Source: Candidatus Eiseniibacteriota bacterium (GTDB lineage Bacteria; ARS69). Taken from it: a stretch of 22,271 nucleotides of DNA. Shown in pieces: positions 4,699-10,158 of the stretch (positions are counted from its first letter, which is position 1; each line of letters begins with the position of its first letter). Under the pieces are notes generated by a model. The model was not told where the DNA came from and searched no databases. It saw only the letters and a list, made by a program, of their open reading frames with translations. Location of the stretch: contig JBQTGV010000189.1 of assembly GCA_052390515.1 (NCBI GenBank), positions 1-22,271 on the forward strand, written 5' to 3'. Position numbers and translations under genes: made by a program.

Positions 4699-7302
4699 GT
4701 GCGCGGCCCGTGGCCCGACAGACTGTTCCTCGCGTCGATGACCTTCTCCATTCTCGTGGCGGTCGCGCACGCCATCTCCCTGCCGATCGCGTTCACCTAC
4801 GACGGCCTCGAGTATCTGGACCTCGCCGACGTCCTCGGTTCGCCGCGGTTCCCGGCGGACTGGCACGAGGCGCGAACGCCGCTCTTCCCGCTCCTGCTGA
4901 AGGCGGGAATGACGCTCTTCGGCCGGCAGCCCCTGGCCGTCATCGCCGTGCTCACCGCGTGCGGGCTGGCGACGGTGCTCGTGATCGGTGCGACGACCCG
5001 GGCGCTCGCCGGTCCGGTGGCCGGGGCGCTGGTGATGGCTCTCGTGTCACTCTATCCGACGGCGATCGCGCACCAGCATCTGGTCCTGACCGAGGCCGGT
5101 ACCGCGTTCCTCGTCGCGGCCGTGGTCGCCTTGTCGGCGAGGCGGGGGCAGGGGTCGGGGCTCTGGCGAAAGACCGCGGCGCTCGCACTCGTGGGCGGCG
5201 CGGCCTACTACTGGCGGCAGCCGGCGCTGGTGATGGCGCCGGCCGCGGCCGCGGTGCACATGGTCATGCACCTCCGGGGGACCCGGCTCCGGAGCCGGGC
5301 CGCGGGAATCGTGCTGCTGCAGGCGGTCCTGATCGGGGCCGTCCCCTTCGCCATGACGCGGCCGTGGCAGCCCTATCTCAACGACGCCGGCATGACGTCG
5401 GTCCACTTCTACGAGGGACTTCTCAAGCAGGCTCTTCTACCGATCGACCATCCACGGGCGGCGCCCTGGGCCGAGCGCTACCGGGAGGCCATCGAGGAGG
5501 CTCGTCGCGGCAACTTCTACTCCGGCCTTCGCACGGAGTCGTACCGCGCGCTGTCGGAAGACATGTTCGGTGGGCCGGCCGGCCGGCGCCGCGGCGGCGA
5601 GGAGCTCTTCCTCGAGCTGGTGAGGGAGCATCCCGGCGCGTACTTCCATGCGCTCGGACGGACGCTCATGCTGTTCGCGGGCGCGAAGTCGCTGGACAAC
5701 GAGAACTTCGTGCACCGGGGAATGGTGCTCTCCACGCTGCCCCCGGAGGAACGCATCGTGCGCGCGCTCGGCGAGCTGGGCGAACGAATCCGCGCCGACT
5801 TCGGCTACCCCGCGCGGGACTCGCTCGTGCTGCGAGTGATCCGTGGGCTGACGCTGCCCTATGACGGGCTGCTGCTCGCCGGAAGCCTGGCGACCGCGGT
5901 CGGCCTGCTGCTCGGGCTCGCTACGCGGAGCGGGACGCTGCTCGCCCTGTGCGGGATTCCCGTGGCCACCCTGCTTCCGTACGCCGTCGTGCTGGACTCC
6001 TTCGACCGCTATGCGCTCCCCGCGCATGTCCTGTTCGTCGCCAACGTCGTCATCCTCCCCGCGCTCGCCGCCCGCGAATTGGCCCGGCGGCGGCGGCGGC
6101 GCCCCCGACCCGGATCGGCCGGGAACGCCGGCTGCCACGAGTCACTTCTCGATGGGCATCCCCACCATGGAGCCGTACTCGGTCCACGAGCCGTCGTAGT
6201 TCCGCACGTGATCGAGCCCGAGCAGGTACTTGAGCACGAACCAGGTGTGGCTGGAGCGTTCGCCGATGCGGCAGTACGCGATGGTGTGCTTCTTCGGGTC
6301 CACCGCCGCCTTGCCCAGGTAGATCTCGCGCAGTTCGTCCGCGCTCTTGAACGAACCGTCCGCCGCCACCGCCGTGGACCACGGAACGCTCTTCGCCCCC
6401 GGAATGTGTCCGGCGCGCTGCGCCGTCTCGGTCATTCCCGGAGGCGCGATCACCTTGCCGGTGAACTCGTCCGCGCTGCGCACGTCGACGAGGTTCGTCT
6501 TCCCGCCCTTGACGGCCTGCAGGACGTCGTCCACGCGCGCGCGAACCGAGAGATCGGGACCGGAGGCCTTGTACGCGGCCGGCGTCACCCGCGGCACGTC
6601 CACGGTGAGCTTCTTGTCGCTCTCGTTCAGCCATTTCACACGCCCGCCGTCCATGAGCCGCACGTTCTCGTGGCCGTAGATCTTGAACAGCCAGAACGCG
6701 TACGCGGCGAACCAGTTGTTGTTGTCGCCGTAGAGGATCACGGTATCCTCGCGGTGGATGCCGGCGCCGCCCACCAGCTTCTCGAAGCCGGCCTTGTCCA
6801 GGATGTCACGGGTGAGCTGATCCTGGAGCTGGGTCTGCCAGTTGAAGCCGACCGCACCCTCGATGTGCCCGGCCTCGTAGGCCTTGGTGTCCACGTCGAC
6901 CTCGACCAGACGGATGCCCGGCTTGCCGAGGTTCTGCTTCACCCATTCGGTCGAGACGAGCACCTCGGGATGGGCGTGCGTGCTCATGGTCGAACTCCCC
7001 TGTGTGGAACTTCTCGCTTCGTTCATGTCCTGCTCCTTTCGTCCATGGGTCAAACCGAGGTGCCTTCCGCCAGCTCCGGAATGTGCTTGATCATGGCGGA
7101 GACGTACTTGAAGACGTTGTCGGGGAAGATCATGACGCCGAGCCCCTGGCGGTCGCGCTCGACGACGCGTCGCGCGCCCTCGAGGATCAGCCCGGAGCTC
7201 GGCCCGGCGAGCAGTCCTTCGTTCCGCGCCAGATCCAGCGCGCGGGTGTACGCCAGCTCGAAGTCGATCTCCAGCAGTTCGTCGATCAGCGAGGGATCGT
7301 AG
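4699..7302 (+). CDS. Polytopic membrane protein, probably GT-C/ArnT-PMT-like glycosyltransferase; credible coding to ~6100, then read-through with no stop until 7302
   Basis: Many hydrophobic segments; YDGLEYLDLA, RTPLFPLLL, LTEA and DRYALP resemble GT-C motifs. The C-terminal ~390 aa are antisense to the rhodanese and cysteine synthase genes. Confidence 0.6.
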   Translation: MRGPWPDRLFLASMTFSILVAVAHAISLPIAFTYDGLEYLDLADVLGSPRFPADWHEARTPLFPLLLKAGMTLFGRQPLAVIAVLTACGLATVLVIGATTRALAGPVAGALVMALVSLYPTAIAHQHLVLTEAGTAFLVAAVVALSARRGQGSGLWRKTAALALVGGAAYYWRQPALVMAPAAAAVHMVMHLRGTRLRSRAAGIVLLQAVLIGAVPFAMTRPWQPYLNDAGMTSVHFYEGLLKQALLPIDHPRAAPWAERYREAIEEARRGNFYSGLRTESYRALSEDMFGGPAGRRRGGEELFLELVREHPGAYFHALGRTLMLFAGAKSLDNENFVHRGMVLSTLPPEERIVRALGELGERIRADFGYPARDSLVLRVIRGLTLPYDGLLLAGSLATAVGLLLGLATRSGTLLALCGIPVATLLPYAVVLDSFDRYALPAHVLFVANVVILPALAARELARRRRRRPRPGSAGNAGCHESLLDGHPHHGAVLGPRAVVVPHVIEPEQVLEHEPGVAGAFADAAVRDGVLLRVHRRLAQVDLAQFVRALERTVRRHRRGPRNALRPRNVSGALRRLGHSRRRDHLAGELVRAAHVDEVRLPALDGLQDVVHARANREIGTGGLVRGRRHPRHVHGELLVALVQPFHTPAVHEPHVLVAVDLEQPERVRGEPVVVVAVEDHGILAVDAGAAHQLLEAGLVQDVTGELILELGLPVEADRTLDVPGLVGLGVHVDLDQTDARLAEVLLHPFGRDEHLGMGVRAHGRTPLCGTSRFVHVLLLSSMGQTEVPSASSGMCLIMAETYLKTLSGKIMTPSPWRSRSTTRRAPSRISPELGPASSPSFRARSSARVYASSKSISSSSSISEGS
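6142..6987 (-). CDS. Thiosulfate sulfurtransferase (tandem-domain rhodanese, SseA/CysA-like)
   Basis: MSTHAHPEVLVSTEW, GHIEGA, active-site loop YCRIGERSS, C-terminal YDGSWTEY signature. GGGGAG RBS; alternative start at 7026. Confidence 0.95.
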   Translation of the reverse strand: MSTHAHPEVLVSTEWVKQNLGKPGIRLVEVDVDTKAYEAGHIEGAVGFNWQTQLQDQLTRDILDKAGFEKLVGGAGIHREDTVILYGDNNNWFAAYAFWLFKIYGHENVRLMDGGRVKWLNESDKKLTVDVPRVTPAAYKASGPDLSVRARVDDVLQAVKGGKTNLVDVRSADEFTGKVIAPPGMTETAQRAGHIPGAKSVPWSTAVAADGSFKSADELREIYLGKAAVDPKKHTIAYCRIGERSSHTWFVLKYLLGLDHVRNYDGSWTEYGSMVGMPIEK

Positions 7303-8015
7303 AGCGCTGAGACCGATAGCTGCGAGACGTTGCGCAGGCCCGGAACGTCGTGCCCCTCCGTCGGCTGCACCGCGACCACCTTCACGGCCGGGTTGCGCTC
7401 CTTCAGGAAGCGGCCGCAGCCGGTGACCGTACCGCACGTGCCGAGGGAGACGAACAAGTGGGTGATGCGCCCTTCCGTCTGCCGCCAGATCTCCGGGCCG
7501 GTCGTCTCGTAGTGCACGGCCACGTTGCGCTCGTTCTCGTACTGGTTGGGCAGCGCGTAACGCTCCGGTTCGGCCTTCGCCCTCGTCTTGGCCATGTTGA
7601 TCGAACCGTCGGAGGCGCCGGGCGTCGGGCAGACGTCGTCGTTCATCACGTCGAGGTCCGCGCCGGCGATCTTCAAGAGCACCTTCTTCTCCAGCGGCAC
7701 TTTGTTCGGCACGACGGCGCGCATCCGGTAGCCGCGCGCCGCGGCGATGGCGGCGAGCGAGATCCCGGTGTTTCCCGAGGTGGGCTCGACGATGCCGCGG
7801 CCGCCGGTCAGGAGACCCCGCTCCTCCAGGTCCCGCACCAGCGCTCCGGCCGCGCGGTCCTTCACCGAGCCGAAGGGGTTCGCCCACTCGAGCTTGGCGA
7901 ACAGGGCGAAGTCCGCTACGGGGTTCAGTCGGCGGAGGCGCACGAGCGGCGTCGGGTTCTCCGGCCCGGGCAGCATCTGCAGCACGTCGTCGTAGACCGC
8001 GGTCTCGCGGTTCAT
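7050..8015 (-). CDS. PLP-dependent cysteine synthase family protein (CysK/CysM-like)
   Basis: AKLEWANPFGSVKDR (PLP lysine), EPTSGNTGI, NQYEN, HYETTGPEIW, GTCGT, GPSSG, IFPD. Confidence 0.93.
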   Translation of the reverse strand: MNRETAVYDDVLQMLPGPENPTPLVRLRRLNPVADFALFAKLEWANPFGSVKDRAAGALVRDLEERGLLTGGRGIVEPTSGNTGISLAAIAAARGYRMRAVVPNKVPLEKKVLLKIAGADLDVMNDDVCPTPGASDGSINMAKTRAKAEPERYALPNQYENERNVAVHYETTGPEIWRQTEGRITHLFVSLGTCGTVTGCGRFLKERNPAVKVVAVQPTEGHDVPGLRNVSQLSVSALYDPSLIDELLEIDFELAYTRALDLARNEGLLAGPSSGLILEGARRVVERDRQGLGVMIFPDNVFKYVSAMIKHIPELAEGTSV

Positions 8016-8031
8016 CGAATCTCCGCTCCGG

Positions 8032-8066
8032 AATGAAGAAGCCCACCGGTCCGGGAGCCGGTGGGC
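8032..8066 (-). terminator. Intrinsic terminator-like hairpin in the 5' leader of the cysteine synthase operon (attenuator)
   Basis: Minus strand GCCCACCGG-ctcccgga-CCGGTGGGC (9-bp stem) followed by TTCTTCATT. Confidence 0.75.
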
Positions 8067-8091
8067 CGCAAACCGCCGAATGTCCGGGATC

Positions 8092-8169
8092 TCAGGCGGA
8101 CCGGCGCGCGAGCCCCCGCGGCCCCGAAATGGAACAGGAACAGGCGAAGCTCGGGCTGTCCGGAGTCAT
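8092..8169 (-). CDS. Putative leaderless Cys-containing leader peptide MTPDSPSFACSCSISGPRGLARRSA (25 aa)
   Basis: ATG at 8169 lies 6 nt after the -10 box; TGT-TCC-TGT-TCC at 8142-8131; TGA at 8094-8092; precedes the terminator and cysteine synthase. Confidence 0.7.
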   Translation of the reverse strand: MTPDSPSFACSCSISGPRGLARRSA

Positions 8170-8175
8170 GGGCGC

Positions 8176-8204
8176 AAGGTAGGCGCGCGTCCGACGTACG
8201 TCAA
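8176..8204 (-). promoter_or_regulatory. sigma70-type promoter TTGACG-N17-TACCTT for the cysteine operon leader
   Basis: -35 TTGACG (8204-8199), 17-bp spacer, -10 TACCTT (8181-8176). Confidence 0.75.
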
Positions 8205-8250
8205 GGCTGGCCGGGGTGCGCCCGGCGGGCGCCGGACACCGAGCTCCGTG

Positions 8251-8835
8251 TCAGCCGCGTCGGAGCCCTGCTCTCGCGCCGCGCCTCCCGGGAGGCGGAG
8301 CCATCGCCACGTAGGTCACCTCGAAGGTCCCCGCCGCCAAAGAGGCGAAACGCGCGACGTCCGCCGCGGCGATCCCCGCTCCCTCTCCCGGATCCACCGT
8401 CAGCATGAACCCGTCCGTCACCATCCCCTCCTCCACCATCTCCTTGAACACCGTCGTCAGATCGAAGCGCAGCTCCACCGACGGGCTCCTCAGGTCCACC
8501 TCCCGAAGCGCAAAAAGCTCCGAGTCGTAGTCGCTGCCAGGCCGCGACCACCCCGCATCCCAGGTCACCGCTCCCGCCACCCACGGCGTCGTCACCGGAT
8601 GAACGCGCAGCGTCAGCACCCGGTCCACGACCATCCCGGTGGCGTCGAAACGAAGAACCGCGCGGCGAATGGCGATGTTCTCGAGCTCCACCGGGGAGTC
8701 CATCTTGAACAGCACGCGGCTGTCACCGCTCACATCGGCGATGGCCGTGAGGCCCGCCACCCTACGGGTGAGCTGCTCCGCGGAGGTCGCCGTAGCCAGG
8801 AGGCACGCCAGCGCCGTGATCAGCAGTTTCGTCAT
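8251..8835 (-). CDS. Secreted hypothetical protein, DNRLRE-like domain
   Basis: AGGAGGA RBS; signal peptide MTKLLITALACLLATATSA; segment LRVHPVTTPW...VTWDAGWSRPGSDY...FDLT resembles DNRLRE/disaggregatase-related domains. Confidence 0.7.
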   Translation of the reverse strand: MTKLLITALACLLATATSAEQLTRRVAGLTAIADVSGDSRVLFKMDSPVELENIAIRRAVLRFDATGMVVDRVLTLRVHPVTTPWVAGAVTWDAGWSRPGSDYDSELFALREVDLRSPSVELRFDLTTVFKEMVEEGMVTDGFMLTVDPGEGAGIAAADVARFASLAAGTFEVTYVAMAPPPGRRGARAGLRRG

Positions 8836-8847
8836 GGCCCTCCTCCT

Positions 8848-10158
8848 CTACCGATACCGCGACTTCGTCTTTCCCCAGGACTCCACGTTCACCGACACCG
8901 CGCCGCAGCCCACACCCAACGCTCCGATCTGGCCGCAGGATCCCGAATTGGCCGGCAGCGCCGGCGAGCTTTGCGAAACCGTGAAGTCTTTCTGGGAGGG
9001 ATCGCAGAGCAAAGGATCCACCTCCATGTCGGTGGAGCCGGGCGCGTAGTTCGCTCCGATGCCCTGAGCGTTCTGCCAGAAGAGATTACAACCGCTGGAA
9101 ATAGTGAAACCTGAAAGCACCCGCACGGCCGCAGCACCGGTGGAGCTAGCGATGATGTTGTTGAGGAGCTGACCGCCGCCTGCCGTGAAGACGACCGCAG
9201 CGCCGCCTGTGGAGGCAATCTGTGAGTTTCCGTAGAACGTGTTCCGCTGGACTACTCCCTTGTCGATGAACAGACCACCGCCATTCCCATTCGAGCCCGT
9301 GACGCTGTTGCCCACAAAGACGCAGTCCTCCACCACCGTCGGACCGTTCACCGCGATGGCCACCGCACCCCCTCCCGTGCTTCCGTTGATGTTGCCCTCG
9401 AAGTAGCAGCCGCGGATCGTTACGCCGCCGCTGTAGCCACCTCCACCGATCGCTCCACCCCCGTTCGCCGGAGACGAGTTCCCGATAAACTCGCAGTCCG
9501 TGATGATGGCTTGCGCGGGCAGGCCCACGCCGATCAGGGCTATCGCCTGGTCGGAGCACCCCGAAAACGTGCAGCCGGTGACGGTCAGAAGCGCACTGGA
9601 CTGCCGGATTCCTCCCCCAGCAGACGATGTGCAGTCGACGAACTCGCTGCTCACCACTTCGATGCTGGTGCTCCCCGAGGAGTGAATGCCTCCGCCTGCG
9701 CCGGTCTGGATCAAGCCAAGCAGTACGCAGTTCTTGACTGTGACTTTCAACGAAGACACCGCGTTGACTCCGCTTGCGCCCACCGGCCCACCGGTGATCG
9801 TGAAGCCGTCGATGATCGTCTGGTCCGTCACTAGACTGCGCGCGACCACAACCTCCGGCTGGAAGCCGGTCTGACCCATCATGTCCAGACTGGTCATCGC
9901 CGCACCCGCCTCCGACCGCAGCACCACCCCGTCTGTCAGGAAGGCCACCGCCGTCCGCGTCGATCCGGCGATCGTTCTCGTCTGGATGTCCGAGTACACT
10001 CCCGGAGCTACCAGCACTGTGTCCCCGGCCGTCGCGGCATCCAGCCCATCCTGGACTCTCGGGTATTCGCTGGGCACACGTATTACTGCAGCGCATGCTC
10101 GGAGCGGAACCCCTCCGAGCACCACGGCCGCAAGAAGTTGCAAGACCCTGCTGGTCAT
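8848..10158 (-). CDS. Secreted right-handed parallel beta-helix repeat protein with C-terminal SWGxxKxxY motif
   Basis: Signal peptide; IRVPSEYPRVQDGLDAATAGDTVLVAPGVY; repeated FxGN..GGGA/GGGI units; ends VESWGKTKSRYR. Confidence 0.88.
   Translation of the reverse strand: MTSRVLQLLAAVVLGGVPLRACAAVIRVPSEYPRVQDGLDAATAGDTVLVAPGVYSDIQTRTIAGSTRTAVAFLTDGVVLRSEAGAAMTSLDMMGQTGFQPEVVVARSLVTDQTIIDGFTITGGPVGASGVNAVSSLKVTVKNCVLLGLIQTGAGGGIHSSGSTSIEVVSSEFVDCTSSAGGGIRQSSALLTVTGCTFSGCSDQAIALIGVGLPAQAIITDCEFIGNSSPANGGGAIGGGGYSGGVTIRGCYFEGNINGSTGGGAVAIAVNGPTVVEDCVFVGNSVTGSNGNGGGLFIDKGVVQRNTFYGNSQIASTGGAAVVFTAGGGQLLNNIIASSTGAAAVRVLSGFTISSGCNLFWQNAQGIGANYAPGSTDMEVDPLLCDPSQKDFTVSQSSPALPANSGSCGQIGALGVGCGAVSVNVESWGKTKSRYR

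Follow-up and report, generated by a model that had tools for sequence, protein, structure and literature searches.

A candidate Cys-tRNA-sensing leader-peptide attenuator of a cysM-rhodanese operon in Candidatus Eiseniibacteriota, with homologous leaders in other phyla

The window considered here is a stretch of DNA of 22,271 nucleotides (nt) from a Candidatus Eiseniibacteriota bacterium (contig JBQTGV010000189.1, positions 1 to 22,271, of assembly GCA_052390515.1), a lineage placed by the NCBI taxonomy under the candidate phyla and not in the Fibrobacteres-Chlorobi-Bacteroidetes (FCB) group. On its minus strand, an intergenic gap of 235 nt lies between the stop of an upstream open reading frame (ORF; 8251) and the ATG (8015) of a 321-codon gene for a CysM-like cysteine synthase, which is followed in turn by a rhodanese gene. 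We propose, with a probability of roughly 0.7, that the leader held in this gap is a Cys-tRNA-sensing, ribosome-mediated transcription attenuator of the cysM-rhodanese operon. The evidence is comparative: the Cys codons are conserved in an otherwise free peptide, the terminator stem covaries, small ORFs (sORFs) rich in Cys codons are enriched upstream of orthologous genes, and the spacing from promoter to start codon coincides with a genome-wide signal of leaderless translation. For these reasons we regard as supported the core of an earlier note on this DNA, which had proposed a leaderless Cys-codon leader and a terminator controlling cysteine synthase and rhodanese through ribosome stalling.

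The leader begins with a promoter-like TTGACG (8204-8199) and TACCTT (8181-8176) separated by a 17-nt spacer (8176..8204; minus strand, like all of the leader features below). The last base of the -10 element lies 6 nt upstream of the ATG (8169-8167) of an sORF of 25 codons and a TGA stop (8092..8169), which translates as MTPDSPSFACSCSISGPRGLARRSA and is presumed to be leaderless; no GGAG-like Shine-Dalgarno site is found upstream of it. Two of its 25 codons, the 10th and the 12th, encode Cys, against a Cys frequency of 0.9% in the long ORFs of the genome carrying the window (G000; 95% complete). Both are TGT (8142-8140 and 8136-8134), a triplet that accounts for only 867 of the 8112 Cys codons (10.7%) in the 1497 long ORFs of that genome with high GC at third codon positions. 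The sORF is followed by an intrinsic terminator (8032..8066), with a 9-bp GC stem (8066-8058 with 8049-8041; arms GCCCACCGG and CCGGTGGGC), an 8-nt loop, a tail at 8040-8032 (TTCTTCATT), and a predicted hairpin energy of -19.1 kcal/mol. The leader ends with the Shine-Dalgarno site GGAGCGGAG and the ATG (8015-8013) of the first structural gene (8013..8029), with whose product the orthologs align from residue 1. The earlier note had described the promoter and its distance to the ATG, the missing Shine-Dalgarno site, the use of two TGT codons where TGC is commoner, and the stem with a U-rich tail at 8066-8032, and we find each of these as it reported them. A separate GC hairpin without a U tail (GCGCCC-GCC-GGGCGC; 8205-8250, minus strand) is situated upstream of the -35 element, after the stop (8251) of the preceding ORF, and may serve that ORF as an end signal.

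Within the window alone, these elements are not significant, and their significance comes from conservation in relatives. A terminator scan of positions 6000 to 9000 returned a single terminator-like site (8067-8040, with 10 pairs), with 1.5 such sites expected per 3 kb in shuffled sequence, and the site by itself is thus within chance. A C-x-C arrangement in a 25-codon frame of DNA of 70% GC would, by our own estimate and not by computation, have a likelihood of a few percent. The phylum is sampled by 12 species genomes, all of one family; an ortholog of the CysM-like protein at E ≤ 1e-90 is present in 3 of the 12, and all three loci possess the promoter, the 6-nt spacing to the ATG, the sORF, and the hairpin. 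The promoters of the two orthologous loci other than that of the window (L002 and L003) read TTGACG-N18-TATCCT-N6-ATG and TTGACG-N17-TATCCT-N6-ATG. The three sORFs are 25, 29, and 31 codons long, and their peptides share a core, F-A-C-S-C in the window and C-A-C-S-C and C-V-C-T-C in the two relatives, outside which they are unrelated. Within the core, TGC and TGT interchange synonymously and the residues between the Cys vary. Because TTC stands in the window where the relatives carry TGC, the two-Cys peptide of the window reads, on this alignment, as a decayed three-Cys core.

The behavior of the peptides bears directly on whether the sORF might instead encode a functional Cys micropeptide, such as a metal- or sulfur-binding partner of the enzymes that is cotranscribed with them. 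C-x-C motifs do bind metals, and an N-terminal MSRG and a CCSRS stretch are conserved in three of the metagenome loci described below (L112 to L114), but the three phylum peptides (25, 29, and 31 amino acids [aa]) share nothing beyond their Cys core, and a stoichiometric subunit would not be expected to be set apart from the rest of its operon by a terminator; we therefore hold this explanation to be highly improbable.

The terminator stem is the solid part of the case. For seven homologous leaders, RNAalifold gives a consensus hairpin of 16 pairs; their alignment contains 21 predicted pairs in all, and in 12 of these both sides vary, with, for instance, AU in five leaders and GC in two at columns 129/147 and CG in four, AU in two, and GC in one at columns 133/143. 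A further homologous leader, from a Gemmatimonadaceae metagenome-assembled genome (MAG; locus L046), adds a C-G to U-A change in the terminator core. The alignment thus points to a stem that covaries, and in all nine homologous leaders the hairpin and its U-rich tail stand between the sORF and the Shine-Dalgarno site. Conserved Cys codons and covarying stems upstream of orthologs are what the earlier note had suggested looking for, and both are found, the Cys core being kept and the terminator covarying. We also considered the hairpin as the terminator of the upstream gene (8835..8251); that gene is divergent in L002 and L003, and this role is therefore ruled out.

A covariance model (R1) built from the seven leaders of the window, L002, L003, L112, L113, L114, and L121 was used to delimit the family. 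In the 12 phylum genomes, it found the leader in G000, G007, and G010 and gave one new full-length match in G004; its other matches there (L195, L196, L198, and L200) were rejected, as they fall in coding sequence or are common hairpins at the ends of genes. Among 160 related loci surveyed around relatives of the CysM-like protein (80 from species genomes and 80 from metagenomes), it recovered L112, L113, L114, and L121, which are part of the model, and the new L046, which is identical to L152. R1 thus links the window leader to six loci outside the phylum, corresponding to five distinct sequences. The terminator stem of the window recurs in the four metagenome loci L112, L113, L114, and L121, whose sORFs carry C-V-C-C, C-C-A-C-I-C-C, or C-V-C, while L046 combines a promoter of the form TTGACG-N18-TACGAT-N6-GTG with a 27-codon sORF that has tandem Cys and a G-rich second half and with a hairpin with a TTTTCCTT tail. 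The number of Cys in homologous leaders ranges from 2 to 5.

The phyletic placement of these loci was examined with a quick maximum-likelihood tree of 93 proteins, for which the careful search is unfinished. All nine leader-bearing loci fall in a single 20-row group (92 in the Shimodaira-Hasegawa-like approximate likelihood ratio test), which also holds another Cys leader (L127) and 10 leader-less loci, some of them from Acidobacteriota; poly-Cys loci from Myxococcaceae and Phycisphaerae make up a separate 14-row clade. Three leader-less members of the 20-row group (L031, L111, and L116) display TTGAC(T/G/A)-N17-TA(C/A/T)(A/C)CC exactly 6 nt before the ATG of cysM, and from this arrangement cysM itself looks leaderless in them; the leader may have been lost from these loci or may have been inserted in the others.

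For a count of Cys-rich sORFs upstream of orthologs at large, we retained the 169 of 190 loci that align from within the first 12 residues and, of these, the 145 (L001 to L003 and L031 onward) with 250 nt or more of upstream sequence. Within the final 300 nt of this sequence, we looked for frames of at most 110 codons with a start codon before the Cys cluster, and the controls were the reverse complement of the same 145 loci and shuffled sequences (n = 2900); the loci are kin and not independent of each other. sORFs with at least three Cys in a 6-residue window were present in 24 of 145 loci in the forward direction, compared to 3 of 145 in the reverse complement and 66 of 2900 shuffles, and those with at least four Cys in such a window were present in 11 of 145, 0 of 145, and 2 of 2900, respectively. 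A variant of the count, whose start-codon rule missed L002, gave 18 of 158, 4 of 158, and 75 of 3160. By eye, the poly-Cys loci comprise about a dozen distinct leader types, among them sORFs ending in CCCCR in Myxococcaceae-like loci, those with six or seven Cys in Phycisphaerales, and those with VCACTC or PCCCCPC in Acidobacteriota. That the leader of the window is a chance juxtaposition of an unrelated short frame and an ordinary hairpin, a view to which the window by itself would lend some color in that each element alone lies within chance expectation, is already contradicted by this enrichment and by the conservation in relatives, and we give it next to no weight.

The same survey informs the question of whether the leader could be an untranslated structured RNA, bound by a protein or a small ligand in the manner of a riboswitch, with the Cys codons as a by-product of constraints on the RNA. 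The Cys codons do lie within a conserved nucleotide block, CTGCGYCTGT, which might serve as a binding site or a helix strand. Against this, the frame stays open while its flanking codons vary freely and TGC and TGT interchange, and nonhomologous leaders in other clades also have runs of Cys in an open frame with a start codon, which would be hard to explain by one RNA motif. Moreover, an Rfam search of positions 7000 to 9000 at E ≤ 10 gave no family beyond two chance-level matches to eukaryotic ones. Overall, such an RNA appears quite improbable.

Two further kinds of Cys leader deserve mention as observations in their own right. The Myxococcaceae-type sORFs (L049, L058, L059, L161, and L169 to L173) end in four Cys codons, an Arg codon, and a stop. 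The GC hairpins behind them lack U tracts, and the read-out of this leader family may differ from that of the window leader. In addition, a genome of the same phylum and a different genus has a second, differently built Cys leader (L194, 1441-1660; G004:C1, about 1191987-1192206), in which a promoter-like TTGACT-N18-TAAGGT precedes an sORF led by a Shine-Dalgarno site (MPMTAT...LCACLCCCL..., with five Cys) and a canonical terminator with TTTTTCTTT; the next gene encodes a 130-aa NAD_binding_7 protein of the siroheme-synthase N-domain type.

The presumed leaderless translation of the sORF finds indirect support in the layout of the genome as a whole. In G000, TANNNT ends 6 nt short of an ATG or GTG close to the beginning of a long open frame in 73 cases, compared to 34 at 7 nt and about 6 to 43 across the other 28 spacings tested, and the peak at 6 nt would fit such a start of the sORF. 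A strict pattern, TTGACN-N16-18-TANNNT-N5-8-ATG/GTG, has 15 sites in this genome, 11 of which head ORFs of at least 100 aa; the window leader is the sole short Cys-containing ORF among the 15. The 6-nt spacing between the -10 element and the start codon is common to four lineages, those of the window, L002, L003, and L046. On these counts, 6 nt is to all appearances the preferred leaderless geometry of the genome, and the leaderless layout of the leader reads as a feature of the genome that carries it. The pattern would also be a separate line of sequence evidence for frequent leaderless translation in this candidate phylum.

Folding predictions suggest how such a leader could switch. With the A of the sORF ATG (8169) numbered as leader nt 1, the Cys codons occupy nt 28-30 and 34-36, the stop codon nt 76-78, and the terminator nt 104-129. 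Three elements are relevant: segment 2, which is rich in G, lies toward the 3' end of the sORF, in its second half (8107..8128; nt 42-63), and is the proposed 5' strand of an antiterminator; segment 3, composed of the 5' arm of the terminator, its C-rich loop, and 4 nt upstream (8050..8070; nt 100-120), which would be the 3' strand; and, between them, a nested hairpin CCGCC...GGCGG (8073..8099) that contains the stop codon of the sORF (8094-8092). When the RNA is left free from nt 41, as with codon Cys10 in the ribosomal A site, nt 42-63 pair with nt 100-120 around the nested hairpin in the minimum-energy fold. In constrained folds, this antiterminator (8128-8107 with 8070-8050) has an energy of -46.6 kcal/mol and the terminator one of -45.3 kcal/mol. 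The earlier note had put forward two alternative pairings, both of which are possible on paper. Its first (8124-8115 with 8072-8063; nt 46-55 with 98-107) is, at -40.2 kcal/mol, the least favorable by about 5 kcal/mol. Its second (nt 65-73 with 117-125), at -45.7 kcal/mol, and the longer helix are each within about 1-3 kcal/mol of the terminator. Folding with ribosome-footprint constraints, which that note had also suggested, changes the predicted probability of the terminator in the window. It is 0.98 for the naked RNA and 1.0 for a ribosome that has reached the stop codon, and it drops to 0.36-0.44 when a stall at Cys10 exposes the RNA from nt 41 onward and to 0.01-0.13 when the exposed part begins at nt 31-37.

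Comparable architectures are predicted in the relatives. All eight further leaders that were folded (L002, L003, L112, L113, L114, L121, L046, and the separate Cys leader L127, with the transcript ended before the 3' arm) show the same predicted pairing, in which G-rich sequence downstream of the Cys codons joins the C-rich arm and loop of the terminator. The stop codon lies inside a small helix between segments 2 and 3 in L002, L003, L112, and L113 as well, and between L112 and L113 a G-to-A change in segment 2 is matched by a C-to-U change in segment 3.

From these features we infer where transcription starts, that the sORF is translated, which helix is the antiterminator, and how the operon responds to cysteine, and we envisage the following course of events. 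Transcription would start at the first base of the sORF ATG (8169) or right beside it, and a 70S ribosome would load on the leaderless mRNA and trail the polymerase. With ample Cys-tRNA, it would cross the G-rich half of the sORF to the stop codon in the nested hairpin, keeping segment 2 off the 5' arm of the terminator; the GC hairpin would then form ahead of the U-rich tail, and transcription would end before cysM. With Cys-tRNA scarce, the ribosome would wait at codon 10 or 12 and leave segment 2 (8128-8107) free to pair with the emerging 5' arm and loop of the terminator (8070-8050), the hairpin would be blocked, and the polymerase would read on into cysM and the rhodanese gene.

Several results weigh against this scheme. 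As for the parts of the leader, the window has only two Cys codons and these are not adjacent (C-S-C), the U tract is broken (6 U in 9), and in a promoter scan no site passes the sigma-70 rule, the -10 element agreeing with the consensus in only 3 of 6 positions; the transcription start at 8169 is a prediction. As for the switch, the terminator is still favored, with a probability of 0.96, when the RNA of the window is free from nt 47, i.e., with the ribosome at Cys12. Antiterminator complementarity exceeds that of dinucleotide shuffles only modestly, at 47 of 500 for the window, 97 for L002, 87 for L003, 12 for L121, 133 for L112, 60 for L113, 5 for L114, and 98 for L127; cross-pairing of cognate versus noncognate segments 2 and 3 was not significant (30 of 120 permutations). 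A helix of segment 1 with segment 2, i.e., of the Cys region with the G-rich stretch, which would sequester segment 2 when the ribosome does not stall, does not surpass shuffled sequence in the window (144 of 500) and is likewise not significant in L002, L003, and L121, being nominally significant in L112 to L114. The whole-leader folding energy is no better than that of shuffles in the window (z = 0.02), and it is better in L002 (z = -3.78) and L003 (z = -2.35). In these last two leaders, an 18-bp hairpin wins at equilibrium for every ribosome position, and any switch there would therefore have to be kinetic. Taking the fold models together, an antiterminator switch is plausible and conserved in its architecture, has weak support in the window, and would have to operate kinetically.

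Regulon-level support is also wanting, as no further Cys leader was found in G000 beyond that of the window. A relaxed -10 pattern gave four sORFs in this genome, of which only the window leader has a -35 element. Frames with at least four Cys in a 6-residue window number 26 (211 with at least three); 10 of these and one sORF from the relaxed pattern were inspected, and none is leader-like, most lying inside a longer open frame and three in a gap with no sulfur gene after it. No Cys sORF is present upstream of cysS or of two other PALP paralogs of G000, and cysS is directly preceded by another gene, without a leader. On the minus strand of contig C179 of the same genome, two near-identical Cys-rich short frames (…CGCCICGWSARMQ…) lie about 2.8 kb apart, out of frame in duplicated longer coding frames; they are not leaders and mark a tandem gene duplication.

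Some of these results could be accommodated by a leader that senses cysteine through the sORF but is read out otherwise, through initiation of cysM translation (by masking of the Shine-Dalgarno site), mRNA stability, or access of Rho, with the hairpin acting as a constitutive partial terminator or a stabilizer. In the last 200 nt, a U-tract terminator is found by a strict rule in only 7 of the 24 poly-Cys loci, compared to 8 of 85 loci with at most one Cys. This low fraction is a further point against attenuation by termination, and the 17 of 24 poly-Cys loci that lack such a terminator under the rule would fit a different read-out; the rule did miss L112 and L113, whose terminators are clear by eye. 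The hairpin of L002 and L003 is too stable to be lost at equilibrium, folding of the naked 160-nt RNA places the start of the sORF in a helix with the Shine-Dalgarno region, and the mechanism proven in mycobacteria (Canestrari et al., 2020; 10.1101/834739) is translational. On the other hand, the predicted folds do not bring the Cys tract into pairing with the Shine-Dalgarno site, which is located downstream of the hairpin; the covarying hairpin and its U-rich tail are positioned exactly between the sORF and that site in nine of nine homologous leaders; and the pairing of the G-rich segment with the terminator arm recurs across them. We accordingly judge these other read-outs, the main rival of our reading, unlikely, if worth keeping in view, and favor transcription attenuation.

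The operon proposed to be under this control has two genes. The first (7050..8015, minus strand) encodes a CysM-like, pyridoxal phosphate-dependent cysteine synthase of 321 aa (Pfam PALP, 1e-62), which scores 261.7 bits against the NCBIfam model cysKM (cutoff, 344) and 254.2 bits against cysM, both below the curated cutoffs; its best solved relatives are enterobacterial cysteine synthase B enzymes (1.6e-60). The second (6142..7026, minus strand) starts 26 nt past the cysM stop with its own AGGAG and encodes a two-domain rhodanese of 294 aa, similar to SseA and thiosulfate sulfurtransferase (Pfam Rhodanese, 1.2e-31, in two stretches; NCBIfam NF008557, 1.2e-33, below its cutoff). A rhodanese follows cysM in 88 of 158 related loci, several loci ending at contig edges. 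In the 95% complete G000, there is no match to the 3'-phosphoadenosine-5'-phosphosulfate (PAPS) reductase family (CysH/CysD) and no CysE above its family cutoff. Canonical sulfate assimilation and O-acetylserine synthesis may thus be missing, and the CysM-rhodanese pair may, by inference, be an important route of sulfur entry in this organism. An 867-codon frame on the plus strand (4699-7302) runs antisense through the whole rhodanese gene and matches the PMT_2 glycosyltransferase family in residues 59-216 only; it is probably an overextended frame in high-GC DNA or a frameshifted gene.

The distribution of the leader prompts a broader interpretation. The homologous leader is present in the candidate phylum, in the Gemmatimonadaceae MAG, and in further metagenome loci, and the same protein clade also holds Acidobacteriota; in Myxococcota, Planctomycetota, and Acidobacteriota, the pair is preceded by leaders of distinct types. 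We would lay even odds on the view that cysM-rhodanese with its own Cys-sensing leader is a self-regulating cassette that has moved between phyla, with the leader lost in some relatives, where cysM would be transcribed directly from that promoter as a leaderless mRNA, and that Cys-leader attenuation with intrinsic terminators is widespread and has evolved repeatedly outside Actinobacteria.

The classical leader-peptide attenuators are those of trp, his, leu, thr, and ilv in enterobacteria. To our knowledge, cysteine stands alone among the common amino acids in that its leader-peptide attenuation was described late; the cases so far are a translational switch of mycobacteria and one predicted for Rhodobacterales cysS. 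With the classical attenuators and with the leaderless leader peptide and terminator described for ilvBNC of Corynebacterium glutamicum (PMC11857589), the system discussed here shares an sORF rich in the amino acid of the pathway and, as modeled here, would share mutually exclusive antiterminator and terminator helices and the position of the ribosome as the switch; the leader-peptide mRNA of C. glutamicum ilvBNC is leaderless, as is presumed for the window. In the window, we find the enrichment of the sORF in codons for the pathway amino acid and the intrinsic terminator before the first gene. It differs from the classical attenuators in that cysteine is the amino acid sensed, a 1:2 anti-antiterminator helix is unsupported in the window, and the stop codon is in a nested hairpin between segments 2 and 3 and not beside segment 2.

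A close parallel in terms of the sORF is the mycobacterial Cys ribulon. Canestrari et al. (2020; 10.1101/834739) describe leaderless poly-Cys sORFs (Ms5788A/Rv0815A) that act translationally, and they state that attenuation mediated by an upstream ORF (uORF) had not been described for cysteine; another source (PMC13236596) cites the mycobacterial case as translational. Common to both systems, as the window leader is interpreted here, are a leaderless sORF with Cys codons at the head of a sulfur or cysteine operon and pausing at these codons as the sensor, and the Ms5788A operon likewise holds a thiosulfate sulfurtransferase, cysA2 (10.1101/834739). In mycobacteria, base pairing joins the poly-Cys tract to the Shine-Dalgarno site of the gene that follows, there is no terminator, and the Cys codons are consecutive at the 3' end, whereas the window type has two or three alternating Cys codons in the middle of the sORF and a covarying terminator and occurs in another lineage; the two are compared by architecture, and homology is not expected. 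Of the features that define the Cys ribulon, the position at the head of a cysteine/sulfur operon is found here, ahead of the CysM-like and rhodanese genes. A run of two or more consecutive Cys codons, as specified by Canestrari et al. (10.1101/834739), is absent from the window (C-S-C) and from L002 and L003 (C-x-C-x-C) but occurs, as tandem Cys, in L046, and the Cys region pairs within the sORF in the predicted folds and not with a Shine-Dalgarno site.

Two further predictions involve Cys codons. Brewer et al. (2021; PMC8632094) predicted uORFC-8-2, a two-Cys uORF with an intrinsic terminator upstream of Rhodobacterales cysS, and proposed it as a Cys-tRNA sensor. Like the window leader, it has two conserved Cys codons followed by an intrinsic terminator, but its target is cysS and not a cysM-like gene, its Cys are in tandem at positions 14-15, and it is restricted to Alphaproteobacteria; no sequence relation between the two is seen (no Rfam match, the presence of the motif in Rfam 15 not having been checked). 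Seliverstov et al. (2005; PMC1262725) predicted Cys leader peptides in Actinobacteria, encoded by short ORFs in which Cys codons form runs, ahead of cys operons and cbs; no terminator hairpins were found there, Rho-dependent termination was suggested, and the taxa are confined to Actinobacteria, unlike the window leader. The suggestion of the earlier note that a terminator-type, two-Cys version in a candidate lineage may be undescribed therefore needs qualification, in that the type had already been predicted for Rhodobacterales cysS (PMC8632094) and the two-Cys form looks like a decayed three-Cys core. In the library that we searched in full text, no Cys-codon leader with a terminator is described upstream of a cysteine synthase or in these phyla.

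The principle is thus classical and the mechanism that of the textbooks, and it is the lineage and the target operon that are new. The points that appear new are the sensing of cysteine, the apparent read-out by termination, the conserved cysM-rhodanese target, and a leader shared across phyla. For annotation, the gain is a previously unannotated small ORF and a regulatory RNA. The locus and its relatives suggest that the classical terminator/antiterminator version of attenuation exists for cysteine too, that it controls a conserved pair of the thiosulfate-assimilation type, a rhodanese with a CysM-like enzyme, and that this form of control extends across several phyla that have been little studied. 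For the physiology of this uncultured lineage, the leader points to the cysM-rhodanese operon as its response to cysteine starvation.

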